Virus record (IMG/VR): IMGVR_UViG_3300029719_000311
Span: 1-31,209 of that record
Length of the DNA stretch: 31,209 nucleotides
Source of the DNA: a virus
Taxonomy: Duplodnaviria; Heunggongvirae; Uroviricota; Caudoviricetes
Reading direction: 5' to 3' (one strand)
How positions within the stretch are numbered: the first letter of the stretch is position 1; each line of letters begins with the position of its first letter. Under the pieces are notes generated by a model. It was not told the origin of the DNA, did no database searches, and saw only the letters and a program-made list of their open reading frames with translations. Position numbers and translations under genes: made by a program. Below are positions 8,282-31,209 of this stretch, one piece after another.

Positions 8282-8772
8282 GCATGAGTCTTTTGAATGA
8301 CGTTCAGAAATTCATTGAAGCCCATCCGGGCTGTACTTCCGGAGATATTGCGGATGCTTTTGCCGGTTACTCACGGCAGCGCGTTCTGCAGTCAGCAAGC
8401 AAGTTACGTCAGAGTGGGCGTGTGGCTCACCGTTGTGAAGGAGATACACGCAGACATTTCCCGCGCCTGACTGAGAGAGCGCAGGAACCGGAACCACAAC
8501 CAGTTCGTGAAACCAGACCTGTGCGCAATTTCTATGTCGGCACTAACGATCCCCGTGTGATTTTGTGCCTGACCCGCCAGGCGGAAGAACTGGAGTCCAG
8601 GGGCTTATACCGTCGTGCTGCAACCGTGTGGATGGCGGCATTCCGTGAAAGCCACTCCCAGCCAGAACGAAACAATTTTCTGGCGCGTCGTGAGCGGTGC
8701 TTACGGAAAAGCAGCAAGCGCGCTGCATCGGGTGAAGAGTGGTATCTGTCAGGGAATTACGTGGGGGCTTAA
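8278..8772 (+). CDS. Hypothetical regulator (winged-helix N-terminus; PerC-like C-terminal region), 164 aa
   Basis: ATGA overlap with upstream gene; C-terminal ...EELESRGLYRRAATVWMAAF... resembles PerC-type prophage regulators from memory; low certainty. Confidence 0.4.
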   Translation: MSMSLLNDVQKFIEAHPGCTSGDIADAFAGYSRQRVLQSASKLRQSGRVAHRCEGDTRRHFPRLTERAQEPEPQPVRETRPVRNFYVGTNDPRVILCLTRQAEELESRGLYRRAATVWMAAFRESHSQPERNNFLARRERCLRKSSKRAASGEEWYLSGNYVGA

Positions 8773-9425
8773 TGAGTAATAAATATTGCCAGGCGCTGGT
8801 GGAACTGCGGAACAAACCAGCCCATGAACTGAAGGAAGTGGGCGATCAGTGGCGCACGCCGGACAACATTTTCTGGGGAATTAACACCCTGTTTGGCCCG
8901 TTTGTTCTGGATCTGTTCACTGACGGTGATAACGCCAAATGTGCCGCGTATTACACGGCGGAAGACAACGCGCTGGCGCATTACTGGTCAGAACGTCTTG
9001 CGGAGCTTAAAGGTGCTGCCTTTGGTAATCCCCCGTACAGCCGCGCCAGTCAGCATGAGGGGCAATACATCACCGGCATGCGTTACATCATGAAACATGC
9101 CAGTGCCATGCGTGATAAGGGCGGGCGCTATGTTTTCCTGATCAAAGCTGCCACCAGCGAAGTGTGGTGGCCGGAAGATGCAGATCATATTGCTTTTATT
9201 CGCGGGCGTATTGGTTTTGAACTGCCTGTCTGGTTTATCCCGAAAGACGAGAAGCAGGTACCGACAGGAGCTTTTTTCGCTGGTGCTATTGCTGTTTTTG
9301 ACAAGACCTGGAAGGGACCGGCAATCAGCTACATCGGGCGCGATGAACTTGAGGCATGTGGTGAGGCGTTTCTGGCGCAGGTTCGCCAGCAGGCGGAAAA
9401 ACTGGTCAGGGAGATGGCGGCATGA
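8772..9425 (+). CDS. Phage DNA N6-adenine methyltransferase (Dam-like)
   Basis: Catalytic motif NPPY in ...AAFGNPPYS...; start at ATG overlapping upstream stop (TAATG), giving MSNKYCQALVELRNK... Confidence 0.8.
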   Translation: MSNKYCQALVELRNKPAHELKEVGDQWRTPDNIFWGINTLFGPFVLDLFTDGDNAKCAAYYTAEDNALAHYWSERLAELKGAAFGNPPYSRASQHEGQYITGMRYIMKHASAMRDKGGRYVFLIKAATSEVWWPEDADHIAFIRGRIGFELPVWFIPKDEKQVPTGAFFAGAIAVFDKTWKGPAISYIGRDELEACGEAFLAQVRQQAEKLVREMAA

Positions 9426-9748
9426 CGACGTTAACTCAATGCCAGCAGCAGGTGCTGGATATGCTGATTTCTTATCAGAAAGAACGTGGCTTCCCGCCAA
9501 CCAATCAGGAGGTGGCAACCATGCTGGGATACCGTTCGGTGAATGCAGCGGTGGAGCATCTTCGCGCACTGGAGAAAAAAGGCGTCATCACGATAAAGCG
9601 TGGCGTGGCCCGGGGGATAACGCTTCATACCGCGGTGAAGGACGACGACAGCGAGGCGGTCGGGATTATCCGCGCACTGCTTGCCGGTGAGGAAAACGCA
9701 AGGCTGCGTGCAACCCACTGGTTACATGAGAGGGACCTGAAAGTATGA
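9422..9748 (+). CDS. LexA N-terminal DNA-binding-domain-like protein lacking the peptidase domain (108 aa)
   Basis: LTQCQQQVLDMLISYQKERGFPPTNQEVATMLGYRSVNAAVEHLRALEKKGVITIKRGVARGITL closely parallels the LexA N-terminal winged HTH; no S24 Ser/Lys region. Confidence 0.7.
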   Translation: MTTLTQCQQQVLDMLISYQKERGFPPTNQEVATMLGYRSVNAAVEHLRALEKKGVITIKRGVARGITLHTAVKDDDSEAVGIIRALLAGEENARLRATHWLHERDLKV

Positions 9749-10134
9749 AGCTGATCCTGCCTTTTCCGCCCAGCGTGAACACGTACTGGCGACACCCCAA
9801 CAAAGGGGCGTTTGCTGGTAAGAGCCTGATAAGCGCGGCGGGGCGAAAATTCCAGAGCGCGGCGTGCGCAGCAATAGTTGAGCAGTTACGTCGTCTGCCG
9901 AAACCAACGTCGGCACCTGCTTCAGTGGAGATCGTGTTGTTTCCTCCGGATAACCGGATCCGCGATCTGGACAACTATAACAAGGCGCTGTTTGACGCCC
10001 TGACCCACGCGGGTGTGTGGGAGGACGACAGTCAGGTGAAAAGAATGCTGGTGGAGTGGGGACCGGTTATCCCGGAAGGGAAGGTCGAGATCACTATCAG
10101 TAAGTACGAGAAAACGGCGGGTGCAGCCGCCTGA
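9745..10134 (+). CDS. rusA: Holliday junction resolvase RusA
   Basis: LPFPPSVNTYWRH..., ...RDLDNYNKALFDALTHAGVWEDDSQV... match RusA conserved blocks; ATGA coupling. Confidence 0.85.
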   Translation: MKLILPFPPSVNTYWRHPNKGAFAGKSLISAAGRKFQSAACAAIVEQLRRLPKPTSAPASVEIVLFPPDNRIRDLDNYNKALFDALTHAGVWEDDSQVKRMLVEWGPVIPEGKVEITISKYEKTAGAAA

Positions 10135-10153
10135 TCAAGAGGAGAAACGAAGT

Positions 10154-10951
10154 ATGAATAATCTGATGGTCATTGATGGTATTGAAGTTCGTCGTGATGC
10201 TTATGGTCGTTACAGCCTGAACGATCTGCACAGGGCTGCTGGTTCTCTGGATAAGCATAAGCCCGCATTCTGGCTCCGCAATGAGCAAACTGAACGCTTA
10301 ATAAGCGAGTTGCAGATTTGCAACTCGGTCAATATAGCGCCAGTTAATGTCATTCGTGGTGGAAATAACCAGGGAACGTATGTCTGCAAGGAACTGGTGT
10401 ATGCCTATGCAATGTGGATTAGCCCGTCATTCCATCTGAAGGTGATCCGTACTTTTGACATGGTAACCAGCATACCGGAAAAATTATCCGGGCAGGCTGC
10501 TGACAAGATGCAGGCTGGTGTGATTCTGCTGGACTTTATGCGTCGGGAGTTAAATCTGTCTAACTCATCTGTGCTTGGGGCCTGTCAGAAACTCCAGGAG
10601 GCTGTTGGCTTACCGAATTTGGCACCGCGCTATGCCATTGATGCTCCTGCTGATGCACTCGATGGCTCAAGCCGCCCTACGCTATCATTGAGTGCACTGC
10701 TGAAGCAGTATGGTATCCGCCTTACGGCTAATCAGGCATATCACCAGATGGTGAAGCTGGGGATCGTCGAGCAGCGCGAACGATACAGCCGTACCACGAT
10801 TAACAACATCAAAAAATTCTGGTCGCTGACAGCGAAAGGCTGCATGTTCGGCAAGAACATCACCAGTCCCGCAAATCCGCGCGAGACGCAGCCGCATTTC
10901 TTCGAATCCCGATTCCCTGAGCTGTTAAAGCTGCTCGATATCGTTCATTGA
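10154..10951 (+). CDS. KilA-N domain protein (antirepressor/Bro-like), 265 aa
   Basis: Start at ATG after AAGAGGAGAA; N-terminus MNNLMVIDGIEVRRDAYGRYSLNDLHRAAG... typical of KilA-N domains. Confidence 0.6.
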   Translation: MNNLMVIDGIEVRRDAYGRYSLNDLHRAAGSLDKHKPAFWLRNEQTERLISELQICNSVNIAPVNVIRGGNNQGTYVCKELVYAYAMWISPSFHLKVIRTFDMVTSIPEKLSGQAADKMQAGVILLDFMRRELNLSNSSVLGACQKLQEAVGLPNLAPRYAIDAPADALDGSSRPTLSLSALLKQYGIRLTANQAYHQMVKLGIVEQRERYSRTTINNIKKFWSLTAKGCMFGKNITSPANPRETQPHFFESRFPELLKLLDIVH

Positions 10952-10952
10952 G

Positions 10953-12755
10953 GTGACCGTGAGAGCACTACTGACCCCTGAAATTGCCCCGCGTATGGGG
11001 ATCGTATTGTTCAGACCAGGTTCAGAGCTGATGCCCCTGTTTATGCAGGGGCGTGTCCTGCTGGAGCCTGAGCCGGAACGTTATTCATCTTTCGCCAGTG
11101 GTGCTGTTCCGGCGGCATCACAACCGCTGGCGGATGATCCTGCCGTTCGGGCCGTGTTCCGCAATGAGGCAGTGATCCGTCGTGCTGGTGGCGTGGAATG
11201 TCTTGAAAGCTGGTTACTTCGTGAAAAAGGCTGCCAGTGGCCTCATTCCGACTGGCACAGCGAGAACATGACCACAATGCGACACGCGCCGGGTGCAATC
11301 CGTCTGTGCTGGCACTGCGATAACCAGCTGCGCGATCAGTTCACGGAACGGCTGGAATCAATGGCAACGGATAACTGTGCCCGCTGGGTGTTGTCTGTTG
11401 TGCGTCGGGATCTCGGTTTTGATGACAGTCACGTTGTGACAATGCCGGAACTGTGCTGGTGGCTGGTTCGTAATGACCTGGCGGGAGCCTTGCCGGAAAG
11501 TGCAGCCCGTAAGGCACTGAGATTACCGAAGCCTGTTGTGCCGTCTGTCACCCGGGAAAGTGACCTTGTTCCTTCGGTTCCTGCCACCAGCATCATCCAG
11601 GATAAAGTGAAAAAGGTGCTGGCGCTGAAAGTGGATCCGGAGTCGCCGGAGTCTTTTATGTTACGCCCAAAACGTCGCCGCTGGGTTAACGAAAAGTATC
11701 TGGATTTTTTCAAAGGCGAGATAGGGAAAACCCATCTGGCTCAGGAGCTGTGGACGCAGATTGATAACGGTCAGCTTGCGCCTGACCTGGCTGAAATCAG
11801 GACATCCATTACGGATGTCAGCAATGAAATCACACAGACCGTCAATAAGAAACTGGAAGACCAGAGTGCAGCGATCCAGCAGATACAGAAGGTTCAGGTT
11901 GATACAAATAATAATCTGAACAGCATGTGGGCTGTGAAGCTGCAGCAGATGCAGGATGGACGCCTTTATATTGCGGGTATCGGTGCCGGTATTGAGAACA
12001 CCCCTGACGGCATGCAGAGTCAGGTGCTGCTGGCGGCGGACAGGATTGCGATGGTTAATCCTGCGAATGGCAACACAAAACCGATGTTTGTTGGTCAGGG
12101 CGATCAGATATTCATGAACGACGTGTTCCTGAAACGCCTGACGGCCCCCACCATTACCAGCGGTGGAAATCCACCGGCATTTTCCCTGACACCGGACGGA
12201 AAGCTGACCGCTAAAAATGCGGATATCAGTGGCAGTGTGAATGCGAACGCCGGGACGCTCAACAATGTCACGGTAAATGAAAACTGTACGATTAAGGGCA
12301 TGCTGGAGGCGACTCAGGTCAGAGGTGACTTCGTTAAAGCTGTATCCAAATCATTCCCGAAACAGGCTGGTACGTGGGGTAACACGGAAACACCAAACGG
12401 GACGGTTACAGTTACCATAAGCGATGATCATAACTTTGACCGTCAAATCATTATTCCGCCCATTATCTTTAACGGAATAGCGTATAGCGATCCGGGAAGT
12501 GGTAATAACCCGGGAGGTACAAGATACACGGGTTATGGTTTTGAAGTTCGCAAAAACGGTGTATTAATCGCATCCAGAGAAACTAAAGGGGCTATTCCCG
12601 GTAGCTACAGTGCGGTTATTGATATGCCGAGTGGCAGGGGAAGCGTCACTCTGGAGTTTAAGGTTTTCCATAAAGGCAATCAGTGGGCAGGTAATATCAC
12701 CGACTGTACGGTGATTGTGACCAAAAAAGCCGCTTCCGGCATCAGTATTCGTTGA
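10953..12755 (+). CDS. Chimeric ORF: N-terminal Cys/His-motif domain (DUF968-like early protein) fused to C-terminal tail-fibre J-like region
   Basis: GTG start adjacent to KilA-N stop; N-terminal about 280 aa contains CWHCDNQ; C-terminal about 300 aa is Gly/Thr/Asn-rich tail-fibre-like sequence; immediately followed by lom-stf-tfa as in the lambda J-lom-stf-tfa order. Confidence 0.55.
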   Translation: MTVRALLTPEIAPRMGIVLFRPGSELMPLFMQGRVLLEPEPERYSSFASGAVPAASQPLADDPAVRAVFRNEAVIRRAGGVECLESWLLREKGCQWPHSDWHSENMTTMRHAPGAIRLCWHCDNQLRDQFTERLESMATDNCARWVLSVVRRDLGFDDSHVVTMPELCWWLVRNDLAGALPESAARKALRLPKPVVPSVTRESDLVPSVPATSIIQDKVKKVLALKVDPESPESFMLRPKRRRWVNEKYLDFFKGEIGKTHLAQELWTQIDNGQLAPDLAEIRTSITDVSNEITQTVNKKLEDQSAAIQQIQKVQVDTNNNLNSMWAVKLQQMQDGRLYIAGIGAGIENTPDGMQSQVLLAADRIAMVNPANGNTKPMFVGQGDQIFMNDVFLKRLTAPTITSGGNPPAFSLTPDGKLTAKNADISGSVNANAGTLNNVTVNENCTIKGMLEATQVRGDFVKAVSKSFPKQAGTWGNTETPNGTVTVTISDDHNFDRQIIIPPIIFNGIAYSDPGSGNNPGGTRYTGYGFEVRKNGVLIASRETKGAIPGSYSAVIDMPSGRGSVTLEFKVFHKGNQWAGNITDCTVIVTKKAASGISIR

Positions 12756-12824
12756 AATTGTTATAACCCATATAAGGGCACCAGAAATGGTGCCTTTTTT
12801 ATTGCAGAAAAGCGAGAGGTAATT

Positions 12825-13424
12825 ATGCGTAAACTTTATGCCGCCATTTTGTCCGCAGCCATTTGTCTGGCCGTATCCGGTGCGCCTGCATGGGCATCTG
12901 AACATCAGTCCACGCTGAGCGCGGGGTATCTTCATGCCTTGACGAACGTTCCCGGCAGCGATGATCTTAACGGGATTAACGTGAAATACCGTTATGAGTT
13001 TACGGACACACTGGGGCTGGTGACGTCATTCAGCTATGCAGGAGACAAGAATCGCCAGCTTACCCGTTACAGCGATACCCGCTGGCATGAAGATTCAGTG
13101 CGTAACCGCTGGTTCAGCGTGATGGCGGGGCCGTCTGTGCGCGTGAATGAATGGTTCAGCGCGTATGCGATGGCGGGTATGGCTTACAGCCGTGTTTCGA
13201 CTTTCTCCGGGGATTATCTCCGCGTAACTGACAACAAGGGGAAAACGCACGACGTGCTGACCGGAAGTGATGACGGTCGCCACAGCAACACGTCTCTGGC
13301 GTGGGGGGCTGGCGTGCAGTTTAACCCGACCGAATCCGTGGCCATTGATATTGCTTATGAAGGCTCCGGCAGCGGTGACTGGCGTACCAACAGTTTCATC
13401 GTGGGTGTCGGTTATAAATTCTGA
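12825..13424 (+). CDS. lom: Lom/Ail family outer-membrane beta-barrel protein
   Basis: Signal peptide [24 protein letters not shown], alternating beta-strand pattern, C-terminal ...VGVGYKF; position between J and stf. Confidence 0.85.
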
Positions 13425-13488
13425 TTAGCCAGGTAACACAGTGTTATGACAGCCCGCCGGTTCAGGCGGGCTTTTTTGTGGGGGGAAT

Positions 13489-15903
13489 ATGGCAGTAAAG
13501 ATTTCAGGTGTACTGAAAGACGGCACAGGAAAACCGGTACAGAACTGCACAATCCAGCTGAAAGCAAAACGTAACAGCACCGCGGTGGTGGTGAACACGC
13601 TGGCCTCAGAAAATCCGGATGAAGCCGGGCGTTACAGCATGGACGTTGAGTACGGTCAGTACAGCGTTATTCTGTTGGTGGAAGGGTTCCCGCCGTCACA
13701 TGCCGGGACCATCACCGTGTATGAAGATTCCCGACCCGGTACGCTGAATGATTTTCTCGGTGCCATGACGGAGGATGATGCCCGTCCGGAGGCTCTGCGC
13801 CGTTTTGAACTGATGGTGGAAGAGGTGGCGCGTAACGCGTCCGCGGTGGCACAGAACACGGCAGCCGCGAAGAAGTCAGCCGGCGATGCCGGCACATCTG
13901 CCCGTGAGGCGGCAACGAACGCGAAAGCGTCGGAAACCAGCGCAGAATCCTCAAAAACGGCTGCCGCATCGTCAGCCAGTTCGGCGGCGTCATCGGCATC
14001 ATCGGCGTCTGCTTCAAAAGATGAGGCGACCAGACAAGCGTCAGCAGCGAAGAGCAGCGCCACGACGGCATCCACGAAGGCGACAGAGGCTGCTGGCAGT
14101 GCGACGGCGGCAGCTCAGAGCAAAAGTACGGCAGAATCCGCAGCAACGCGCGCCGAGACAGCAGCAAAACGGGCAGAGGATATTGCATCCGCCGTGGCGC
14201 TTGAGGATGCGAGCACGACGAAAAAGGGGATAGTACAGCTCAGTAGTGCGACTAACAGCACTTCCGAGTCACTGGCGGCAACACCAAAAGCCGTTAAGGC
14301 CGCGTATGACCTGGCTAACGGGAAATACACCGCACAGGATGCAACGACAGCACAGAAAGGGATAATCCAGCTAAGCAGCGCGACCAACAGCACGTCTGAA
14401 ACGCTTGCCGCGACACCAAAGGCAGTAAAAGCAGCCAATGACAATGCTGAGAAACGTCTGCAGAAAGATCAGAACGGTGCGGATATCCCTGGCAAAGATA
14501 CCTTTACGAAAAATATTGGTGCCTGCCGTGCCTTCGGTGGGTCAGTAAGCACAACAACAGGAAACTGGACGACTGCACAGTTTATCGAGTGGCTGGATTC
14601 TCAGGGAGCATTTAACCATCCATACTGGATGTGCAAGGGTTCCTGGTCTTATGGCAATAATAAAATCATTACTGATACTGACTGCGGTAATATTCATCTC
14701 GCCGGAGCTGTCATTGAAGTAATGGGGATAAAGTCAGCGATGACGATCCGCATTACCACACCGACCACCTCCACTGGTGGTGGAACAACTAACGCCCAGT
14801 TTACCTATATCAATCACGGAACAGATTATTCACCTGGCTGGCGAAGGGACTATAACTCCAGAAATAAGCCAACGGCATCAGAGATCGGGGCGTTACCGTC
14901 AGGTGGAACAGCAGTATCATCAGTTAATCTGGCTTCAAAAGGTCGGGTAACCGCGCTGACAGACAATACGCAGGGGGCAGCAGGTCTTGAGTTATACGAG
15001 GTGTATAACAACGGATATCCAACAGCGTATGGAAATATCATTCACCTGAAAGGGATGACAGCCGTTGGCGAAGGTGAGTTACTCATCGGCTGGAGTGGTA
15101 CAAGCGGTGCTCATGCTCCGGCATTTATTCGTTCACGACGGGATACGACCGACGCAAACTGGTCGCCGTGGGCGCAGCTTTACACCTCGGCTCATCCTCC
15201 TGCAGAGTTTTATCCAGTCGGTGCACCAATCCCGTGGCCATCAGATACCGTTCCGTCTGGTTATGCCCTGATGCAGGGGCAGACTTTTGACAAATCTGCA
15301 TACCCGAAACTTGCAGTTGCTTATCCGTCAGGCGTGATCCCTGATATGCGTGGCTGGACGATTAAGGGCAAGCCCGCCAGTGGTCGGGCCGTATTATCTC
15401 AGGAACAGGACGGCATTAAATCGCACACCCACAGCGCCAGCGCATCCAGTACGGATTTGGGGACGAAAACCACATCGTCGTTTGATTACGGAACCAAATC
15501 CACGAATAACACCGGGGCGCATACCCATAGTATTAGCGGGACCGCAAATAGTGCCGGTGCGCACCAACACAAGAGTTCCGGTGCATTTGGTGGCACGAAC
15601 ACGAGCATTTTCCCTAATGGTTATACCGCGATTTCAAATCTAAGCGCGGGGATTATGAGCACAACAAGCGGTAGTGGCCAGACTCGTAATGCAGGGAAGA
15701 CATCATCAGATGGTGCTCATACCCACTCGCTGTCCGGCACTGCTGCAAGCGCAGGCGCACATGCACATACTGTCGGTATTGGTGCTCATACGCACTCCGT
15801 TGCGATTGGTTCACATGGACACACCATCACCGTTAACGCTGCTGGTAACGCGGAAAACACCGTCAAAAACATCGCATTTAACTATATTGTGAGGCTTGCA
15901 TAA
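13489..15903 (+). CDS. stf: Side tail fibre protein Stf
   Basis: N-terminal [30 protein letters not shown]...; Ala/Ser-rich coiled region; duplicated KGI(V/I)[11 protein letters not shown](S/T)[11 protein letters not shown] segments; C-terminal His-rich GAHTHS/GAHAH repeats. Confidence 0.85.
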
Positions 15904-16487
15904 TGGTATTCAGAATGAGTGAACAACCACGGACCATAACAATTTATAATCTGCTGGCCGGAACTAATGAATTTATTGGTGAAGGTGATGCATATATTCC
16001 GCCTCATACAGGTCTGCCAGCAAACAGTACCGATATTGCACCGCCAGATATTCCGGCAGGCTTCGTGGCTGTTTTCAACAGTGATGAGGCATCGTGGCAT
16101 CTCGTTGAAGATCATCGGGGTAAAACGGTTTATGACGTGGCTTCCGGCGACGCGTTATTTATTTCTGAACTCGGTCCGTTACCGGAAAATGTTACCTGGT
16201 TATCGCCGGGAGGGGAATATCAGAAGTGGAACGGCACAGCCTGGGTGAAGGATACGGAAGCAGAAAAACTGTTCCGGATCCGGGAGGCGGAAGAAACAAA
16301 AAACAGCCTGATGCAGGTAGCCAGTGAGCATATAGCGCCGCTTCAGGATGCTGTAGATCTGGAGATCGCAACGGAGGAAGAAAACTCGTTGCTGGAAGCC
16401 TGGAAAAAGTATCGGGTGTTGCTGAACCGTGTTGATACATCAACTGCACCGGATATTGAGTGGCCTGCTGTCCCTGTTATGGAGTAA
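15903..16487 (+). CDS. tfa: Tail fibre assembly protein Tfa
   Basis: TAATG overlap with stf; ...[68 protein letters not shown]... typical Tfa N-terminal region. Confidence 0.8.
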
Positions 16488-16973
16488 TCGTTTTGTGATA
16501 TGCCGCAGACACGTCGTATGCAGAAACGTGCTGCGGCTGGCTGGTGAACTTTCAATAGTGCGAGTATTGAATGATTTCCAGCTGTTATCGATTTTATGTG
16601 TTTTTTGCATGAGGGGATTTCCACCACCTCCCACCGACCATCTAAGACTTTATGCCACTGTCCCTAGGACTGCTATGTACTAGGAGCGGATGTTAAACTC
16701 AGACTCGTTTCAGCTACATTGCGTTTTGAATAATATTCCATCATAATAACTCTTTGAAAAATGTGATCTTTTCATTTATAACACTGATGACTTGCTTATC
16801 TCATTGGGATATCGGAGGAGAATACTTAACTATGACAAGCCCGATTATTATGACACTGGCTATATTATATAGATTGATATTAAAATGTAGGATTAGGTTC
16901 TTGCCAAGGTGTCAAGATTTACAGATAGGTTTAAAACCATATAAATATGTTTTACGGTGAGATACAATACATA

Positions 16974-17024: not shown

Positions 17025-20000
17025 ATGGAACCCATATCAATTACAGTGGCAACTTATGTAGCAACTAAACTTATTGATCAATTCATCTCTCAAGAAGGAT
17101 ATGGTTGTATTAAGAAAGCATTATTCCCCCAAAAAAGATATGTGGATAGATTATATCAACTAATTGAAGAGACGGCAATTGAGTTTGAAGAAACATATCC
17201 AGTAGAAAGTGGAGCAATACCATTTTATCATTCCGAACCATTGTTTGAGATGTTGAATGAGCACATCTTTTTTAAAGAGTTCCCTGACAAAGAGATATTA
17301 TTAGACAAGTTCAAAGAATATCCAAGTATCACTCCCCCAACTCAACAACAACTCAGCCTTTTTTATGAGATGTTATCATTAAAAATCAATAATTGTTCGA
17401 AGTTAAAAAAGCTACATATCGAAGAAACGTATAAAGAAAAAATATTCGATATTAATGAAGAGCTCATTCAAGTCAAACTTATTTTACGGTCTATAGATGA
17501 GAAACTAACTTTTCACTTAAGTGATGATTGGTTAAATGAAAAAAATAGTCAAGCAATAGCTGACTTGGGAGGTCGATACACACCCGAACTCAACGTAAAG
17601 CTAGAAATAGCAGAGATATTTGATGGCCTCGGTAGAACTAATGATTTTTCTAAAATATTTTATTCGCATATAGATAGCTTTCTGGTCGCTGGAAAGAAAT
17701 TACATAGTTGCGATGTAATTTCCTCAGAATTATTTGAAATAAACCAGTCCTTAAAAGAAATTTCTGATATATATCAGGAGATTAATTTTTCTAAATTAGA
17801 TGAAATCCCTATAAATAAATTTAATAACTATGTTTCTAGCTGCCAGACAGCTATTGGCGGAGCGGTATCAATATTGTGGGAACTCCGAGAAAAGTCAGAG
17901 CAAGTAGGTGAAACCAAGCATTACAGTGATAAGTATTCATCTACTCTGCGAATGCTTCGGGAATTTGACTATGCGTGCAATGAATTACGTATATTCATTA
18001 ATTCAACAACAGTGAAGTTGGCTAACAACCCATTCTTACTTCTCGAAGGAAAAGCAGGAATTGGTAAGTCTCATTTACTGGCTGATGTGATTAAAAATCG
18101 AATTGCTTCTGGGTATCCTTCACTACTCATACTAGGGCAACAACTTACTTCAGATGAATCTCCATGGTCACAAATCTTCAAGAGATTACAGCTTAAAATC
18201 ACTTCTCGTGAATTCCTAGAAAAACTGAATTTATATGGCAAAAAAACAGGAAAAAGAGTCTTAGTTTTTATTGATGCTATTAATGAAGGTAATGGAAATA
18301 AATTCTGGAATGACAATATTAACAGTTTTGTCGATGAAATCAGATGCTTTGAATGGCTTGGTCTGATAATGTCAGTCAGAACAACATATAGAAATGTAAC
18401 AATTTCACATGAGAATGTTGTGCGAAATAATTTTGAAATTCATGAACATATTGGATTCCAGAACGTTGAGTTGGAAGCGGTTAGTCTATTTTATGATTAT
18501 TACAATATTGAGAGGCCTTCATCTCCTAACCTTAATCCAGAGTTTAAAAATCCTCTATTTCTTAAGTTATTGTGTGAAGGCATTAAGAAAAATGGTTTAA
18601 CCAAAGTGCCTGTTGGATTTAATGGGATTTCAAATATTTTTAACTTTTTAGTTGAAGGGGTAAATAAATCATTAGCATCGCCAAGAAAATATGCATTCGA
18701 TCCCAGTTTTCCTCTTGTTAAAGATGCTCTCAATGAAATCATAAAATTCAAATTAGAGATTGGTCGTAATAGTATTTCACTTAAAGATGCTCACTCAGTG
18801 GTTCAATCTGTAGTTAATGATTATGTTGCTGATAAAACCTTCCTCAGCGCCTTGATTGACGAAGGATTATTGACTAAAGGCATAGTGAGAAATGATGATA
18901 ATTCTACTGAGGAAGTAGTTTATGTGGCTTTTGAAAGGTTTGATGATCATTTAACTGTTAATTTTTTATTAAATGATGTTGAAAATATCGAAAGTGAATT
19001 TAAGCCTGATGGTCGTCTGAAAAAATATTTTCATGATGAATGTGATTTTTATATAAAATCGGGAATAGTAGAGGCGTTGTCTATTCAATTGCCAGAAAGG
19101 TATGAAAAAGAGCTTTATGAATTTCTGCCGGAGTTCAGCAATAATCTTAAATTACTAGAAGCCTTTATTGATAGCTTGATATGGCGCGATATTAAGGCTA
19201 TTGATTTCGAAAAAATTAGACCTTTCATCAATGAACATGTTTTTAAATTTAAAGATAGTTTTGATCATTTCCTCGAGGCAGTGATCTCTATTTCAGGTTT
19301 AGTTGGCCATCCCTTTAATGCTAATTTCTTGCATGATTGGCTAAAAGATTATTCTTTGGCAAATCGAGATTCGTTTTGGACTACAGAACTTAAATATAAA
19401 TATAGTGAAGACTCAGCATTTAGGCATCTAATCGATTGGGCATGGGCCAGAACAGATAAAAGCTTTGTTTCGGATGAGTCAATCGAGCTAGTTGCAACTA
19501 GTTTATGCTGGTTTTTAACTTCTAGTAACCGAGAACTTCGAGATTGCTCAACTAAGGCTTTAGTGAGTTTACTCGAGCCAAGAATTCCTGTATTGAGAAA
19601 AATAATTGATAAGTTTTATGGTGTAAATGATCCTTACGTTTGGGAAAGAATATTTGCAGTTGCATTAGGCTGTACATTGCGAACTGATAATATTAAAGAA
19701 CTAAAATATTTAGCCGAAACTGTTTACCAAAAGGTATTTTGTTCTAAGTATGTGTATCCAAATATATTACTTAGAGATTATGCTAGAGAGATTATTGAAT
19801 TTGCTAATCATCTTGGATTGGAACTTGAAAGCATTGAATTATCCAAGACTAGACCACCCTACAACAGCATTTGGCCTGACAAGATTCCTTCAAAAGAGGA
19901 ACTAGAGTCCCTTTATGATAAAGAACCTTATCGGGAACTCTGGAGCTCTATTATGGAAGATGGTGACTTTTCACGATATACTATTGGAACAAATTATAAT

Positions 20001-21479
20001 CATTCTGATTGGTCTGGTTGCAAGTTTAATGAAACCCCTGTTGACCGTAAGCAAGTTTTTAAAACTTTCAAATGTAAACTAACTGATCAACAAAAAGACT
20101 TGTATGATGCCACAGATCCTTTCATTTATGATGATAAATGCGAAGGAATTAAATTTGGTCGTGTGGTCGGTAGAAAATCACAGGAAGAAATAAAGGCGAG
20201 CAAGAAATTATTTAAGAATTCATTGTCATACGATCTGTTAAGTGAGTTTGAAAATGAAATAGAGCCATACCTGGATCATAATAATAATCTGCTGGAAACT
20301 GATAAACACTTTGATCTTCGACTAGCTCAACAATTTATATTCAATCGTGTTATAGAGCTTGGTTGGGATCCGGAGAAGCATGGTAATTTTGACCAACAAA
20401 TAGGAACTGGACGTGGACGTAGAGAGGCATTCCAAGAACGGATTGGTAAAAAATACCAATGGATTGCTTATTATGAATACATGGCAAGGCTAGCCGATAA
20501 TTTTACTCGTTTTGAAGGTTATGGTGACGAACGAAAGGAAAATCCATACCAAGGGCCATGGGAGCCTTACGTAAGAGATATAGATCCCACTATCTTACTT
20601 AAAGAAACTGGAACGAAAAAAATAAGCAATAAAGAAATGTGGTGGCTTAATGATGAAGTGTTTGATTGGACTTGCTCTAATGAAGACTGGGTTAAAAGTT
20701 CTACTACTATAACTAATTCATATGCTTTTATTGAAGTTAAAGATGATAATGGTGATGAATGGATAGTATTAGAAAGTCATCCATCATGGAAAGAACCAAA
20801 AATTATTGGAAACGATGATTGGGGGCACCCACGAAAAGAGGTTTGGTATCAGATCAGAAGTTATATCGTTAAAGTTGAAGAATTTGAAAATTTTAGATGT
20901 TGGGCAATAGCTCAAGACTTTATGGGCAGGTGGATGCCGGAATGTACTGATAGATACCAATTATTTAATAGGGAGTACTATTGGTCCGAAGCATTTAAGT
21001 CTTTTAAATCAGATTATTATGGTGGATCTGACTGGACTTCGGTAACAGACCGGGAGTCTGGAGCTAAGATAGCTGATGTTAGTGTCACTTCGATTAATTA
21101 TTTGTGGGAAGAGGAGTTCGACAAATCAAAAATAGAAACTTTGAATTTTTTGAAGCCTAGTAACTTAATCTTTGAAAAGATGGGATTAAAAAGTGGGGAA
21201 GTAGAGGGTAGCTTCAATGATGAAAATGGAACTATGGTTTGCTTTGCAGCTGAAGCTGTATATGCTTCAAAGCCGCATCTACTTGTTAAAAAAGAACCAT
21301 TTTTAACAATGTTAAGGGACAATGGTTTTGAAATCGTTTGGACATTATTAGGTGAAAAGGGCGTTATAGGGGGCTCACTCATATCAAGTCATCATTATGG
21401 TCGACAGGAGTTTAGTGGAGCATTTTATTATGAAGACAGTCAGCTAACAGGAAGTCATAAAACTAGCTTTACGAGATAA
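17025..21479 (+). CDS. Large P-loop NTPase with NACHT/STAND-like motifs (1484 aa); candidate antiphage defence protein
   Basis: Walker A GKAGIGKS (18048..18071), Walker B VLVFIDAINEG (18258..18290), downstream IMSVRTT sensor-1-like motif; about 330-aa N-terminal and about 1050-aa C-terminal helical extensions; low GC versus neighbours; located between tfa and attR. Confidence 0.6.
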   Translation: MEPISITVATYVATKLIDQFISQEGYGCIKKALFPQKRYVDRLYQLIEETAIEFEETYPVESGAIPFYHSEPLFEMLNEHIFFKEFPDKEILLDKFKEYPSITPPTQQQLSLFYEMLSLKINNCSKLKKLHIEETYKEKIFDINEELIQVKLILRSIDEKLTFHLSDDWLNEKNSQAIADLGGRYTPELNVKLEIAEIFDGLGRTNDFSKIFYSHIDSFLVAGKKLHSCDVISSELFEINQSLKEISDIYQEINFSKLDEIPINKFNNYVSSCQTAIGGAVSILWELREKSEQVGETKHYSDKYSSTLRMLREFDYACNELRIFINSTTVKLANNPFLLLEGKAGIGKSHLLADVIKNRIASGYPSLLILGQQLTSDESPWSQIFKRLQLKITSREFLEKLNLYGKKTGKRVLVFIDAINEGNGNKFWNDNINSFVDEIRCFEWLGLIMSVRTTYRNVTISHENVVRNNFEIHEHIGFQNVELEAVSLFYDYYNIERPSSPNLNPEFKNPLFLKLLCEGIKKNGLTKVPVGFNGISNIFNFLVEGVNKSLASPRKYAFDPSFPLVKDALNEIIKFKLEIGRNSISLKDAHSVVQSVVNDYVADKTFLSALIDEGLLTKGIVRNDDNSTEEVVYVAFERFDDHLTVNFLLNDVENIESEFKPDGRLKKYFHDECDFYIKSGIVEALSIQLPERYEKELYEFLPEFSNNLKLLEAFIDSLIWRDIKAIDFEKIRPFINEHVFKFKDSFDHFLEAVISISGLVGHPFNANFLHDWLKDYSLANRDSFWTTELKYKYSEDSAFRHLIDWAWARTDKSFVSDESIELVATSLCWFLTSSNRELRDCSTKALVSLLEPRIPVLRKIIDKFYGVNDPYVWERIFAVALGCTLRTDNIKELKYLAETVYQKVFCSKYVYPNILLRDYAREIIEFANHLGLELESIELSKTRPPYNSIWPDKIPSKEELESLYDKEPYRELWSSIMEDGDFSRYTIGTNYNHSDWSGCKFNETPVDRKQVFKTFKCKLTDQQKDLYDATDPFIYDDKCEGIKFGRVVGRKSQEEIKASKKLFKNSLSYDLLSEFENEIEPYLDHNNNLLETDKHFDLRLAQQFIFNRVIELGWDPEKHGNFDQQIGTGRGRREAFQERIGKKYQWIAYYEYMARLADNFTRFEGYGDERKENPYQGPWEPYVRDIDPTILLKETGTKKISNKEMWWLNDEVFDWTCSNEDWVKSSTTITNSYAFIEVKDDNGDEWIVLESHPSWKEPKIIGNDDWGHPRKEVWYQIRSYIVKVEEFENFRCWAIAQDFMGRWMPECTDRYQLFNREYYWSEAFKSFKSDYYGGSDWTSVTDRESGAKIADVSVTSINYLWEEEFDKSKIETLNFLKPSNLIFEKMGLKSGEVEGSFNDENGTMVCFAAEAVYASKPHLLVKKEPFLTMLRDNGFEIVWTLLGEKGVIGGSLISSHHYGRQEFSGAFYYEDSQLTGSHKTSFTR

Positions 21480-21909: not shown

Positions 21910-22072
21910 CACCTAGTTTTCCCAAGTCAACCCACATCAACAAAATCATTTAAAAACATATATATTACGTTGTTTTCATACGTTTGAGGTCAACCCTTGT
22001 CTCTTGAAATCAACACGCGGTTGGGGGCACAATCAGGGGCATGTTCTGTTCGATCTAGGAAATGTGCCCCCA

Positions 22073-25366: not shown

Positions 25367-25602
25367 CACAATACCGCTGAAAACGGAGTAATCCACGATG
25401 AATATTTCAAACGGGCACAACGGTGCTCAGGGCCACACTTTGCCTGAAAAACACAATACCTGCTGCCCTCCACTGATGGCAAACTCCAGACAACCATTCG
25501 CCCGCCAGAGATGAATCCCCGCAGGCTCTATGTCTTCAACAGCGAGGTGCCGGGTTAAGGCTTTGCGTGAGTCTTATTTATTAAGGGTAACAGGTGAAAC
25601 AG

Positions 25603-25780
25603 GTGGAACAACCGTATTTTACAGGGCTGAACCTGTTCCACCTTCTGAAATAGTGAGGTGGAACAGATGTAACGCCAGCCAATCCGCTGTTCCACCTTGT
25701 TACCCGCGATGTTTCACCGGTGCAGTGTATATAAATGTCTTATAAAACAAAGCTGTAACACATGTTTCACCTGTTCCACC
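25603..25780. repeat. Iteron cluster TGTT(C/T)CACC in both orientations (P4 ori/crr-like)
   Basis: About 8 copies (25603, 25612, 25633, 25657, 25688, 25710, 25763, 25772) flanking an AT-rich core; P4 ori/crr use TGTTCACC octamers bound by the alpha primase. Confidence 0.55.
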
Positions 25781-25868
25781 GCATCAGGGACATAAAGCAG
25801 ACTGAAACAGAGGGCATTTTTATCTGGCTGGCTTTCATAGCCACGTCTGAATAACCGCAAGCGCCCGT

Positions 25869-25924
25869 TGTGCCAGCCACCACACACTGAACACCGATAG
25901 TGTGCTTGTGTCAGCCACGACACA
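25869..25924 (+). promoter_or_regulatory. Candidate Ogr/Delta-activated late promoter (two TGT-N12-ACA dyads)
   Basis: TGTGCCAGCCACCACACA at 25869..25886 and TGTGTCAGCCACGACACA at 25907..25924, 35-90 bp upstream of the sid-like ATG. Confidence 0.4.
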
Positions 25925-25958
25925 ATTGACGTAACGAACCAACCCGACAGGAGAAGTC

Positions 25959-26702
25959 ATGAACAATACCGCAGTAAATAACAACCTTTCCACTTTTCCG
26001 GCTGTAACGCAGCGGGCACTGGAAACCATGAACACAGCCAGAAACGCATGGCTTGAAGCACGTCGTCAGCAGAAAGCGGCAGCGGATAATATTGCGACAA
26101 TCCGCCAGCGTCGCGCTGAAATGGAAGCCACGACGAACACACTGAATGAGGAGTGGCGCACGCTGTTTCGTGAAAGTCAGGGCGTGGTCTCAAAGGAAAT
26201 GAAAAAACTGCGCACGGAAATTGCGCTGGGACGAGAAACGCTTGAGGATTTTGATGAGCTGCTGGCGGCTCAGGAAAGCGAAAATGCACTTTTGCCGCAG
26301 AAAGCTGCAGAATTAGCCGGAAAGTATATCCACGCGCATAACATTCTTGTGGATATTCGCGCAAAACAAATCTGGGAGGATTTTATGCAGTCGCATGGAA
26401 AAGCGCTTATTCAGACGCTGAGCCTGCTTAAATCCACAATGGGCCGGGAAGCCAGTGCCGTTGTGGGTGTGGTGAATTCAGTTAATGACCCGGACACAGT
26501 GCTGAAAGACTTTATTCATAAACATATCACCAGACCGGCTCTGGCTAACGATGCGATGCCTGAGCAGGACCCGGTGTTTAAACTGGCGGGAGTTGCCCCG
26601 GATTATGCGGCGCGTCTGGATTTCAGTAATCAACTCTCTCCGGCAGCTATGCATAAAATTAAGGTTCGTCAGGAACTTGCTGAGAAGGAGAAAGCAGTAT
26701 GA
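25959..26702 (+). CDS. Sid-like capsid size determination protein (247 aa)
   Basis: Helical 247-aa protein (P4 Sid is 244 aa), first gene of the operon ending in an ogr/delta gene; AGGAG RBS. Confidence 0.5.
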   Translation: MNNTAVNNNLSTFPAVTQRALETMNTARNAWLEARRQQKAAADNIATIRQRRAEMEATTNTLNEEWRTLFRESQGVVSKEMKKLRTEIALGRETLEDFDELLAAQESENALLPQKAAELAGKYIHAHNILVDIRAKQIWEDFMQSHGKALIQTLSLLKSTMGREASAVVGVVNSVNDPDTVLKDFIHKHITRPALANDAMPEQDPVFKLAGVAPDYAARLDFSNQLSPAAMHKIKVRQELAEKEKAV

Positions 26703-27250
26703 CGGCCCGAGGCACGCCTGACCAGGCACTTACCAGTTTTCGGAATGCCCGCATTCTGTGGGCCGGACATAATGAGAGCCGAAAAGCCGTTGAACAACAG
26801 ATAACATCTCTCCTCGCTGCCACAGAAAAACCAGCAGATTATGCCCGACAGCTCGAATTACTGCGGGAACGTCTGGATGTGCTGAAATGGCAAATTAACT
26901 GTGCTGCGCGCGAATGCATTTACTCGCAGCATTTACTGATGGAGGCCTGCACAGAAGCCGCTCTCAGCAATTTTATGCAGGCGAATGGGGCAGCCCTGAC
27001 ATCTGCACTGGCTCCGTTCCTGAAGGGGCGCGGAGGGGTTGACGTTGCGTCCCGTATATTACGCAGTGCTCTGGTTCGCCAGCTGGCAATAACACCGCCT
27101 GAAATTGCTGGGGATTATCGTGAGATCCTGGATGAATCCGGTTTGATGCCTGACCCCGGGATGATTCGTGATTGCCAGGGTTCTTACACCCCGGCACAAC
27201 ATCTGCGTTTTCAGCAACGCCTGAATGACATTAACGATATACAGGAGTGA
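26699..27250 (+). CDS. Psu-like polarity suppression protein (183 aa)
   Basis: ATGA coupling to sid-like gene; size and operon position match P4 psu (190 aa). Confidence 0.5.
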   Translation: MTARGTPDQALTSFRNARILWAGHNESRKAVEQQITSLLAATEKPADYARQLELLRERLDVLKWQINCAARECIYSQHLLMEACTEAALSNFMQANGAALTSALAPFLKGRGGVDVASRILRSALVRQLAITPPEIAGDYREILDESGLMPDPGMIRDCQGSYTPAQHLRFQQRLNDINDIQE

Positions 27251-27255
27251 TATTA

Positions 27256-27528
27256 ATGGCACTTAAATGTCCGGAATGCGGTACAGTTGCACACGCCAGA
27301 ACAGCAGCCTATGAAGCTCCGTCAGTTAAACGCTCGTGGTATCAGTGCCAGAATCTGGAATGTTCCTGCACATTTACGGCACTGGAGAGTGTGGATAAGA
27401 TAATCATGAAACCCCGGCGCAATGAACAGGAACCAGACAAATCACAACCCCCGGTAAAACAACAGCAAACGCTCAATCGCTATGGCTCCGCGTCAAAACT
27501 GTCAAGCCGTCAGCAGATTCCTGTCTGA
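27256..27528 (+). CDS. Ogr/Delta-family zinc-finger late transcription activator
   Basis: MALKCPECGTVAHARTAAYEAPSVKRSWYQCQNLECSCTFTALESV matches the Ogr pattern C-P-x-C-x4-HART...Y-x-C-Q-N-x-x-C-S-x-T-F; start at ATG after AGGAG rather than track GTG at 27247. Confidence 0.85.
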   Translation: MALKCPECGTVAHARTAAYEAPSVKRSWYQCQNLECSCTFTALESVDKIIMKPRRNEQEPDKSQPPVKQQQTLNRYGSASKLSSRQQIPV

Positions 27529-27549
27529 TTAGAAAAAAACGCCCACGTA

Positions 27550-27575
27550 ATCCCGGTCGAGTACCGGGATTTTTA
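27550..27575 (+). terminator. Rho-independent terminator after the delta gene
   Basis: ATCCCGGT-CGAGT-ACCGGGAT hairpin followed by TTTT. Confidence 0.6.
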
Positions 27576-27863
27576 ACACCTTTTCCCTGGCTGGCCTGAG
27601 AGCGTATGAGTGCATGTCTATGGCGCATGAAAATGCATGAGTCTTATGCACCCTTTTTGAGGCGAAAACCTTTGTGTGGTGGTATCTGAGACGATTTATG
27701 GCATGCATGAAAACCAGTCTGTTAAGCGAAGCGGGCAGGCGTGCGGGGCTGCCCGCGTAAGGGCGTTGAATGGTATAACTATGGCACGGTTACCGCATGT
27801 TTTGAGCTGTAATCGAAGTTATGAAAATTACTATATAAAGCGGTCGCTGTTGTGGAGATACGA

Positions 27864-27922: not shown

Positions 27923-29200
27923 ATGAACCGTCAGCCGTTTACTTCAGCAGCACTTAAACGAAACTTAAGTGAAAGTGAGAAGGCTTATTATTTTAAAAAA
28001 AATAATGTTGCTGAGTTAGAATCATTAATTAGTGATGCCGTTTTAATTGCTAATGAGAATTTTCGCTCTGGTGTGAGTGTAAAGAAACTAAATATTAAGG
28101 GACGCTGCGTTTACACTGCTTCATGTTTGAAGGAAAAAATAATACTTAGACATTGCAATGCAAATTTAAAATGCCTTGAATCGCTTCGTCCCAAACAACG
28201 AAATACAATAATTAGTGAGCTTAAAATTTATTTGGAAGAAGGTACTCCATTCAAAATATATCGTTTGGATATAAAGTCTTTCTTTGAATCAATTGATTTA
28301 CCGCAGCTTTTTCAGCTCTTACATAACGAAACACGACTGTCTAGACATACAAAAAATTTGCTAGAATGGTATCTTAAATCGTGTGAAAGGCTTCACTCTT
28401 CGAAAGGATTACCTAGAGGGTTAGAAATTAGTCCTATGTTATCAGAATTGTACTTGGCACAATTTGATAATAGTATTCATAGGCATCCAGAAGTATTTTA
28501 TTATTCAAGATTTGTAGATGATATGGTAATCGTTTCAAGTGGTTGTGAATGTGAAGCGTCCTTTATGGAATTTATACAAGATGTATTACCAAAGGGATTG
28601 GCTTTAAATAAAAATAAATTAAAAATATCTCCATGCATACCAAAGAGAAGTAAGGGTTTAAATAAACAGGATAAATTGCTTCATGAATTTGACTTTCTAG
28701 GGTACTCGTTTTCTATAATAGACACACCTTTGAGCAAAGATGGTGAGATTAATAGCTGTTACAGAAAGGTTGTTGTTAATTTATCTAAATCTCGCCTGAA
28801 GAAAATTAAAACAAGAATAGCTAGGTCTTTCTACTCTTATCATATTAATGGTGATTTTAAACTATTGCTAGACAGGATTTCTTTTTTGACTAGTAACAGG
28901 GATTTAAATCGCAAAATAAAATCGTTAAGTTCTTTAGAAAAAAGCAAGATAAGTACAGGTATTTATTACAGTAATGCGAAGTTAGATGTTGACTCCATAT
29001 CCCTAAAAAAATTAGATGACTTTTTGCTATATTGTGTGCAATCTAATACTGGGCGTTTGAATAGTGTTGCAAAAAAACCTTTTAATTTGAAGCAAAAAAA
29101 AGAACTGCTAAGAAATAGTTTTAGAAAAGGCTTTGTGGATAGAGTATATAGAAAGTATAACTTTAAGCGCTATACTGAGATTACAAAAATATGGTTATAA
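27923..29200 (+). CDS. Reverse transcriptase 1 (425 aa), defence-associated RT (UG/Abi-like; DRT3 component by inference)
   Basis: Canonical RT motifs: YRLDIKSFFESID (motif 2), LPRGLEISPMLSELYL (motif 4), FVDD catalytic box at 28511..28522 (motif 5), FDFLGYSF (motif 7); very low GC. Confidence 0.85.
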   Translation: MNRQPFTSAALKRNLSESEKAYYFKKNNVAELESLISDAVLIANENFRSGVSVKKLNIKGRCVYTASCLKEKIILRHCNANLKCLESLRPKQRNTIISELKIYLEEGTPFKIYRLDIKSFFESIDLPQLFQLLHNETRLSRHTKNLLEWYLKSCERLHSSKGLPRGLEISPMLSELYLAQFDNSIHRHPEVFYYSRFVDDMVIVSSGCECEASFMEFIQDVLPKGLALNKNKLKISPCIPKRSKGLNKQDKLLHEFDFLGYSFSIIDTPLSKDGEINSCYRKVVVNLSKSRLKKIKTRIARSFYSYHINGDFKLLLDRISFLTSNRDLNRKIKSLSSLEKSKISTGIYYSNAKLDVDSISLKKLDDFLLYCVQSNTGRLNSVAKKPFNLKQKKELLRNSFRKGFVDRVYRKYNFKRYTEITKIWL

Positions 29201-31209
29201 AGAAAAACATTAAACTTGATAAGAAAGATTATCTCAGGGCTTTACTATGTGATACACTGCCCGGTGATTGTCCAATTATTTTTTCAAATGATGGCTTATA
29301 TATAAACTTAACAGAATATGATAGAGTTTGTAATGATTTGTTACATTTTACTCCGGTTTCTTCTTTCTTAAAAAAAATAGTTAACCCTAATTTAGACTCT
29401 TCTATTAGTGTCGCAGATCGCCACCGAGAAAAGAAGAAACAAAGCTCCCCATTTGGCTATTGTATAGTAAAAGATGCCTTTAGCCAAAGACATCTTTCTT
29501 TAATTCACCCAAGATCTCAAATTAATTATTCGGAATTTTATAAAACATACTCATCCGTTATCACATTAAATACTTTAAAAAGTAATTTTTCTATTCGCTA
29601 CCCACGTAAGGTCGCTAACTCTTTCTTTTTATATGAAAATAATGCTTTGGAAAAATATAAAGGGGAAGATATCGAAACAACAAAGGATGAGTTAATGAGG
29701 AAATATTCATCCTCTTATTTTAGTTATGGCGGTTTCAACAGGATATATAAACTATTTCAAAGTAAGATGTTTATTGAGCTTGAGAAAAGATTCTCGGTGA
29801 TGTGGATGTTAGATGTATCACATTGTTTTGATAGCATATATACGCATTCGGTTTCTTGGGCATTAAAAAATAAATCATATATCAAAAAACATGTTAAACA
29901 CAGCAATCAATTTGGACAAGAATTAGATACACTGATGCAACGTAGCAATAATAATGAAACAAATGGAATACCTATTGGTTCAGAGTTTAGCAGGGTTTTT
30001 GCAGAATTAATATTTCAGCGAATTGATTGCAATATTGAGTCATGCCTTCTTAGTGAGCATGGATGGGTTAATAATAAAGATTATGTTATATTGAGATATG
30101 TAGATGATTTTATTGTTTTTTGTAATGGTGAGTCAAGTGCCGAAGTTATTACAAAAATAATTAATGTGAAGTTAAATGAATATAATCTACAATTAAATGT
30201 AAACAAGCTTAAGAAGTATTCTAGGCCATTTTGCACTAGCAAGACAAGTTTGATTGTCAAAGTTAATGAATTAATTCGCAATTTAGAAATTAAACTGTAT
30301 GAAAAACGTGATAGTGGCTTTACTTTAAATAAAATAAGAAGTAAGCATGATTTAAAGATATATGTAATTAATCATGTCAAGTCTATATGCATTGAAAATC
30401 AAGTGTCTTATTCTGATGTTTCATCATATATAATATCATCTCTTTCCAAAAGATTAATATCAATAATTGATATATTACGAGTTCAAGAAAATGAAGATGA
30501 TGTAGATGTAAAAAAAAGGATTAAGGACTTAATTTTCACAATAACCGATATTATGTTGTTCTTTTTCAGTGTTAACCCAACTGTTTCATCATCTTATAAA
30601 TTATCAAAAACAATGGTTGTTGTTAATAACTATTTGAATGAAATATCTAGTGACTATAGTAGTATTTTTATGACTACGTTAGTGAATGCTGCGGAAAACA
30701 TTAATTTTGGTGAGAATGATAATGGGCTGTTTATTGATGATTTCATTTCAATTGAAAAGGTTAATTTAATCTTGGCTGCTACTTTTTTTGGAGATAATTA
30801 TCTTATAAGTGACAGTTTTTTTCATGGAGTTATACATAAAAAGAAATTGGACTACTTTACTATAATCTCACTGCTATTCTATTTTAGAAACAGAAGATCA
30901 TTCCGAAAATTGAAGTGTATAATAGAGGGTGAAATAAAGGAAATATTAAGTTCTAATATGGATTTGCTGCAATCATCGGAAAAGGCACATTTATTTTTGG
31001 ATGTCATGTCATGTCCATTTGTCTCAATAGAGACAAGGCGTTTTTTATATAGAAAATATCTCAAGAGCTATGAGCCAAAGCTGAACAGAAGTCATCTGGA
31101 GATTGAGAATGATTTGCAATCTCTGCTTCAAATATATTGGTTTGTCAAGTGGGATGAGTTAGATATTGTGAAAATGATTGAGAAAAAAGAATTGAAAGAA
31201 AGCTATTAA
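29191..31209 (+). CDS. Reverse transcriptase 2 (672 aa) with long C-terminal extension (UG/Abi-like; DRT3 component by inference)
   Basis: MLDVSHCFDSIYTHSVSWAL (motif 2), NGIPIGSEFSRVFAELIF (motif 4), YVDD catalytic box at 30097..30108; overlaps RT1 by 10 nt; stop codon is the last triplet of the window. Confidence 0.85.
   Translation: MVIKKNIKLDKKDYLRALLCDTLPGDCPIIFSNDGLYINLTEYDRVCNDLLHFTPVSSFLKKIVNPNLDSSISVADRHREKKKQSSPFGYCIVKDAFSQRHLSLIHPRSQINYSEFYKTYSSVITLNTLKSNFSIRYPRKVANSFFLYENNALEKYKGEDIETTKDELMRKYSSSYFSYGGFNRIYKLFQSKMFIELEKRFSVMWMLDVSHCFDSIYTHSVSWALKNKSYIKKHVKHSNQFGQELDTLMQRSNNNETNGIPIGSEFSRVFAELIFQRIDCNIESCLLSEHGWVNNKDYVILRYVDDFIVFCNGESSAEVITKIINVKLNEYNLQLNVNKLKKYSRPFCTSKTSLIVKVNELIRNLEIKLYEKRDSGFTLNKIRSKHDLKIYVINHVKSICIENQVSYSDVSSYIISSLSKRLISIIDILRVQENEDDVDVKKRIKDLIFTITDIMLFFFSVNPTVSSSYKLSKTMVVVNNYLNEISSDYSSIFMTTLVNAAENINFGENDNGLFIDDFISIEKVNLILAATFFGDNYLISDSFFHGVIHKKKLDYFTIISLLFYFRNRRSFRKLKCIIEGEIKEILSSNMDLLQSSEKAHLFLDVMSCPFVSIETRRFLYRKYLKSYEPKLNRSHLEIENDLQSLLQIYWFVKWDELDIVKMIEKKELKESY

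Follow-up and report, generated by a model that had tools for sequence, protein, structure and literature searches.

Two TGT-N12-ACA dyads form a predicted Delta/Ogr-activated, Psid-type late promoter in a diverged P4-like satellite prophage

The late genes of P2 and of the satellite P4 are both activated by delta and ogr (PMC8628076). The consensus of the P2 late promoters is TGT-N12-ACA, and the Ogr motif is CX2CX22CX4C (PMC3931495). The single-domain Delta of phiR73, as well as Pag and Ogr, activates the P2 late promoter PF (bioRxiv 10.1101/2022.11.09.515794). PMC13586616, citing Reiter et al. 1998, describes psu-delta-sid as one operon under the sid promoter, and a swap in the order of psu and delta has been reported in about 20% of P4-like elements (PMC8628076). 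In P4 itself (NC_001609), Psid (~9493-9557) contains exact dyads at 9493-9510 and 9531-9548; the X51522 record was found to carry no promoter annotation.

The stretch of DNA analyzed here (31,209 nucleotides, referred to as the window) carries a satellite prophage of this type. In the initial annotation, two TGT-N12-ACA dyads were described 35 to 90 bp upstream of a sid-like ATG, and this region was assigned to a P4-like late operon. The dyads were found where they had been placed: with the ATG at 25959, the distal dyad spans 73 to 90 bp and the proximal dyad 35 to 52 bp upstream of it. The elements of the predicted promoter are as follows.

25869 to 25886, plus strand: distal TGT-N12-ACA dyad, TGTGCCAGCCACCACACA; predicted activating Ogr/Delta site, centered at about -55.5.
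25898 to 25903, plus strand: weak -35-like hexamer, TAGTGT, 17 bp upstream of the -10 hexamer.
25907 to 25924, plus strand: proximal TGT-N12-ACA dyad, TGTGTCAGCCACGACACA; predicted second Ogr/Delta site, with a modulatory role.
25921 to 25926, plus strand: predicted -10 hexamer, CACAAT, invariant in the 64 distinct promoters described below.
25933, plus strand: predicted transcription start, an A (±2 nt), placed by adding 55.5 to the distal center at 25877.5.

This layout coincides with that of P4 Psid. In both elements, the dyads lie 38 bp apart, and their starts precede the sid ATG by 90 bp (distal) and 52 bp (proximal). Both also have CACAAT sharing bases with the 3' arm of the proximal dyad, iterons of the replication origin 80 to 280 bp further upstream, and the sid, psu, and delta genes downstream of the promoter. 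The shared spacing and ATG distance, together with the Sid-like, Psu, and Delta genes downstream, bear out the P4-like late-operon assignment. The operon consists of the following features.

25959 to 26702, plus strand: sid-like gene, 247 aa (phrog_6165, 8.7e-93), the first gene of the operon, as in P4.
26699 to 27250, plus strand: psu, 183 aa (Pfam Psu, 1e-44; 30% identity to P4 Psu).
27256 to 27528, plus strand: delta, 90 aa from the annotated ATG, single domain (Pfam Ogr_Delta PF04606, 7.5e-16).
27549 to 27575, plus strand: terminator-like hairpin, a 9-bp stem followed by a U-run (fold of -13.8 kcal/mol, z of -2.5).

The gene order is sid-psu-delta, the swapped arrangement mentioned above. 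The sid-like product is 24% identical to P4 Sid over 226 aa (E of 1e-12), and the delta product is 36% identical to P2 Ogr and 32 to 45% identical to P4 Delta. An Ogr/Delta gene in the same operon, also proposed initially, was confirmed by its Pfam match and by its CX2CX22CX4C motif, whose four cysteines align without exception with those of Ogr and of both P4 Delta halves. The gene is annotated in the near-identical locus of E. coli WCHEC025970 (L001), whose RefSeq annotation agrees on the satellite genes. The hairpin at 27549-27575 is conserved in relatives, with compensatory variants in the stem, and probably ends the sid-psu-delta operon.

The significance of the dyads was assessed against the rest of the window. 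Although the bare TGT-N12-ACA pattern occurs at chance frequency (10 matches, with 8.6 ± 2.9 expected), the pair is beyond chance. Both dyads are copies of a 19-nt direct repeat, TTGTGYCAGCCACSACACA; the copies lie 38 bp apart and share 17 of 19 bases. With up to three mismatches allowed, this repeat is found only at these two places in the window (0.00 expected). The proximal copy has perfect 6-bp arms (TGTGTC-N6-GACACA). In the other intergenic regions of the satellite, a single further exact dyad was found (21594, upstream of int). Two other exact matches within the satellite look like chance or coincidences of coding sequence: one at 21998-22015 overlaps the start of the listed int ORF, and one at 27268-27285 within delta corresponds to the codons of the CPECGT zinc-finger residues. 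A third dyad further upstream of the pair was considered and rejected, as the best candidate was a degenerate copy (11 of 18 positions) at 25833-25850. Likewise rejected was a second, PLL-like late promoter, for which one-mismatch matches at 24118, 24171, and 27615 had no support.

To position the start site, we used the activator-site and start coordinates annotated for four late promoters in the P2 RefSeq record. The site centers calculated from these coordinates are -55.5 for PO, PP, and PV and approximately -57.5 for PF. On this geometry, which is borrowed from P2, the distal dyad is assigned to -55.5 and the proximal dyad to approximately -17.5, over the spacer and the -10 region. The leader from the predicted start at 25933 would be 26 nt long, with AGGAG at 25949-25953, and CACAAT, which is part of the conserved block CACAATTGAC, would occupy -12 to -7. 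A position near -55 thus fits the distal dyad and not the proximal one, which overlaps the spacer and the -10 hexamer. Placing the proximal dyad at -55 is implausible because transcription would then start within the coding region, despite the conserved ribosome-binding site and N terminus. By this calibration, the role of the -55 site is open to the distal dyad alone, and the two dyads are not equivalent.

The core promoter itself has a recognizable -10 hexamer and a poor -35 region: TAGTGT is a poor match to TTGACA, with TAGT partly conserved among relatives. A consensus scan of the promoter interval revealed no sigma-70 consensus promoter, which fits an activator-dependent promoter.

Conservation of the promoter was examined in 18 loci from one-genome-per-species contigs (Sid identity of 41 to 100%), representing Shigella, Enterobacter, Citrobacter, Pseudocitrobacter, Pantoea, Mixta, Scandinavium, Erwinia, and an unclassified Enterobacterales MAG, and in 138 viral-contig loci, from which two that matched only in part were excluded. 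The total of 158 loci includes the window, the two E. coli loci L001 and L002, and P4, with Sid identity of 22 to 100%. Both exact dyads were retained in all 158 loci. Removal of duplicates left 64 distinct promoter sequences, comprising 25 distal and 16 proximal sequence variants. The dyad spacing was 38 bp in 58 of these promoters and 39 bp in the other 6, and CACAAT followed the dyads in register in every one. The distal TGT and ACA were likewise invariant, while the interior of the distal dyad accounted for the 25 variants. In distant relatives, the upstream flank, the leader, and the inner bases of the distal dyad showed near-random identity to the window; the dyad triplets matched at 6 of 6 positions, apart from a one-base displacement of the distal dyad in one locus (L013). 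The architecture persists with either of two gene arrangements upstream: a co-directional TOPRIM/DUF927 alpha gene, the arrangement of the window, or a divergent operon encoding a P4-type alpha. The pattern is a phylogenetic footprint of function and does not stem from shared ancestry alone. Within E. coli, 326 of 5,426 complete genomes had a match covering 80% or more of a 601-bp query (25500-26100) that includes this promoter.

The upstream context also bears on whether the operon needs this promoter. In the lineage of the window, alpha lies directly upstream on the same strand, and a scan of 25400-26100 found no terminator-like site between alpha and the dyads, so read-through could contribute to expression. 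It could be argued further that most expression of sid-psu-delta comes from transcripts entering from the co-directional operon upstream (icd-like ... alpha) and that the dyads are vestigial. We consider this very unlikely: vestigial dyads would not be expected to remain exact in all 158 loci amid randomized flanks, and the promoter is also kept in P4-type elements that have nothing co-directional upstream.

A regulator other than Ogr/Delta that recognizes TGT/ACA sites is extremely improbable. The candidates are host CRP and a PpsR/CrtJ-type repressor, the latter with TGT-N12-ACA as its site. Both dyads do contain TGTG...CACA, and a literature search for TGT-N12-ACA yielded mostly papers on PpsR/CrtJ. 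The CRP consensus is TGTGA-N6-TCACA, with 8 bp between TGTG and CACA; in both dyads this distance is 10 bp, neither dyad matches the consensus, and centers at -55.5 and -17.5 are neither class I nor class II positions. PpsR/CrtJ come from purple phototrophs and not from Enterobacterales. CRP and PpsR were rejected on these grounds of spacing and taxonomy, and the dyads always travel with an Ogr/Delta gene.

The two-site reading has a simpler counterpart, in which only the distal dyad is bound and the proximal TGT and ACA are conserved as parts of the core promoter (the spacer and the -10 hexamer). The proximal ACA lies within the invariant -10 hexamer, so half of the conservation of the proximal dyad could stem from the core promoter alone, and P2 helper promoters function with a single site at -55. 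Several points speak against this reading. The proximal 5' TGT (approximately -26 to -24) is invariant in the 64 distinct promoters even though its position is in the spacer, a part of sigma-70 promoters that is little constrained in sequence. The 6-bp arms of the proximal site are perfect in many lineages (TGTGCC-N6-GGCACA, compared with TGTGTC-N6-GACACA in the window), the proximal and distal sites of the window agree at 17 of 19 positions, and P4 Delta reportedly footprints a second site near -18 in Psid. Binding at the distal site alone is judged quite unlikely.

The reading we favor, in which both dyads are Ogr/Delta sites, leads to the following model. The region from 25869 to 25933 is very probably a Psid-type late promoter of a P4-like satellite prophage, activated by Delta or Ogr through the distal dyad. 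A dimer of a small Cys4 zinc-finger activator would bind the distal dyad at approximately -55.5; this activator would be either the satellite's own Delta (27256-27528) or an Ogr-type protein of a P2-like helper. Ogr acts via the alpha subunit of RNA polymerase, and the activator bound here may contact the same subunit, recruiting polymerase to a core promoter whose -10 (CACAAT) is usable and whose -35 (TAGTGT) is poor. The transcript would run from near 25933 through sid, psu, and delta and stop at the 27549-27575 hairpin. With delta in the very operon that Delta would activate, a positive-feedback loop is predicted, and the Ogr of a helper could trigger it. The second dyad, at -17.5, overlaps the footprint of polymerase; its most likely role is to modulate output, probably lowering it when activator concentrations are high. 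We infer the start site, activator binding, the alpha contact, and the role of the proximal site, as well as helper-dependent activation, from these comparisons.

Of the core set of P4-like satellites (int, alpA, alpha, sid, psu, delta, and cos), the window has int, sid, psu, and delta, along with an alpA-like gene and a cos-like block; alpha is reduced to its last ~100 bp. A P4-type integrase gene, the AlpA-like gene, an Icd-like gene, and replication iterons lie upstream of the promoter. The satellite and its surroundings include the following features.

1369 to 16500: tRNA-Thr(CGT), then a lambdoid prophage remnant.
17025 to 21479: Avs2 (AVAST type 2) anti-phage protein, a 1,484-aa ORF (NCBIfam, 1689 bits).
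25457 to 25558: alpha remnant, the last ~100 bp of alpha.
27706 to 27760, core at approximately 27724 to 27751: cos-like block, ...TGCATGAAAACC...AAGCGAAGCGGGCAGGCGTGCGGGGCTG, from a gapped alignment with the P2/P4 cos junction (one indel).
27923 to 29200 and 29191 to 31209 (the last base of the window): Drt3a and Drt3b antiviral reverse transcriptases (NCBIfam equivalogs, 7e-108 and 7.7e-184).

Compared with L001, to which it is otherwise 99.9 to 100% identical, the window has a 3,168-bp deletion, with the junction at 25456-25460 and a 5-bp overlap. The deletion removes the 3' part of a hypothetical gene, a DUF5375 gene, and most of the TOPRIM/DUF927 alpha primase gene; alpha is intact in a Shigella flexneri locus (L004). 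Alpha-less P4-like variants are reported to be frequent (PMC8628076). Given the loss of the alpha primase gene, this copy of the satellite is probably unable to replicate, and its promoter may have ceased to take part in a productive cycle of the satellite. The region at 25589-25783, between the alpha stop codon and the dyads, contains at least nine iteron copies in both orientations (ACCTGTTCCACC / AGGTGGAACA and TGTTTCACC variants). They resemble the type-1 repeats of the P4 ori (GGTGAACAG), which also lie just upstream of Psid in P4 (9310-9413). The region is likely a replication origin.

A block of ~230 bp after the hairpin is conserved and ends in the cos-like sequence; an ungapped search of the satellite in the window with the P2/P4 cos 19-mer gave no match. 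Relatives are conserved to about 27752 and then carry differing cargo, which indicates that the cos-like block marks the edge of a defense hotspot. Here, the hotspot downstream of delta and the cos-like block is filled by the DRT3 pair, and the drt3a and drt3b names also appear in the RefSeq annotation of L001. The succession of hairpin, cos-like block, and divergent cargo suggests that DRT3 probably lies outside the late operon and has its own promoter. At the other end of the satellite, the Avs2 ORF, which gave no Pfam match, lies between the lambdoid prophage remnant and the P4-type integrase gene. No P2-like helper was found within the window: the first 16 kb are a lambdoid remnant, which is not such a helper. 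The genes of the remnant include those for an integrase, an S24 repressor, a CII-like protein, a KilA-N protein, a DUF968-J tail-tip fusion, Lom, and a tail fiber. An Rfam search gave an IS009 RNA match at 16246-16444 and no match in the satellite.

Despite the loss of the primase gene, the satellite has kept an intact promoter, sid-psu-delta, the cos-like site, and flanking defense genes (DRT3 downstream and Avs2 beside int). It is conceivable, if unlikely, that the element is a replication-dead, domesticated cassette whose double-dyad promoter responds to Ogr from an invading P2-like phage and switches on Sid and Psu, which would then sabotage the invader. The promoter would then be a defense trigger and no longer part of a satellite life cycle, and the conserved -17.5 site, which is missing from helper promoters, could be a satellite-specific governor of that defense response.

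Two further observations were made around the promoters of related loci. Most of the P4-type relatives examined have a conserved motif, (C)CTTTTCC-CTGGCTGGCC, located 22 to 29 bp before the distal dyad. The window has a degenerate copy upstream of Psid (25824-25832) and a good copy just after the delta terminator (27578-27596), and P4 (L003) has one at 9458-9476. In one Pantoea-type relative (L011, 3868-3915), the motif folds into a strong hairpin with a T-run after it (-20.1 kcal/mol, z of -3.9). The CTGGCTGGC motif upstream of the distal dyad folds into a strong terminator-like hairpin in some Pantoea-type relatives such as L011 but not in P4 or the window; in four relatives (L012 to L015), its matches fall inside coding sequence. 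The (C)CTTTTCC motif may act as a terminator or an insulator, or it may bind a protein. Separately, the 8935-10072 region of E. coli EC1515 (L002), beside a sid-delta satellite that lacks psu, carries a P2-like portal gene on the minus strand. Two exact dyads lie upstream of the portal gene (TGTGTCGTGAACAGTACA at 9997 and TGTGTCAAATTCGATACA at 10055), in what looks like a remnant of a helper-type late promoter.

The comparison with known systems places the window promoter close to P4 in layout and far from it in sequence. The window proteins are 24 to 45% identical to those of P4 (best local alignments). The gene order is sid-psu-delta rather than sid-delta-psu, Delta is a single 90-aa domain rather than a 166-aa tandem duplication, and the replication operon upstream points the same way as the late operon, whereas that of P4 is divergent. 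A blastn search with 25400-27600 and a tblastn search with the Sid-like protein gave no match in a phage collection that includes P4, because the divergence from P4 is too great for database-scale searches.

In P2, the Ogr-dependent promoters PP, PO, PV, and PF have a TGT...ACA-type site at approximately -55 from the mapped start, like the distal dyad of the window, and the left arm of PO and PP, TGTGTCAG, is that of the window's proximal site and of P4's distal site. P2 Ogr and the window Delta are Cys4 proteins of one family. The P2 promoters differ in having a single, inexact site, whereas the window has two exact dyads: the sites of PO, PP, and PF have one mismatch, PV has no 18-mer within one mismatch of the dyad at its annotated site, and in none of the four does a dyad within one mismatch occur near -18. 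By its description, the retronphage phiR73 is also similar, having a satellite-encoded, single-domain Delta that drives P2 late promoters (bioRxiv 10.1101/2022.11.09.515794).

These comparisons fix the regulatory annotation for islands of a type that is very common in E. coli and Shigella and that carries anti-phage cargo, here DRT3 and Avs2. They reveal no new mechanism; what they add, modestly, is family-wide invariance. Every P4-like locus examined has the two-site layout that was first described in P4, with a spacing of 38 to 39 bp. The layout is absent from helper promoters, and the promoter-proximal site stands out as a feature that helper phages lack. Two TGT-N12-ACA dyads 38 to 39 bp apart, followed by CACAAT, provide a search signature for satellite late promoters. 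Judged by its sequence, the window promoter is a diverged addition to the known P4 Psid class, an ordinary and well-conserved example of a known switch.
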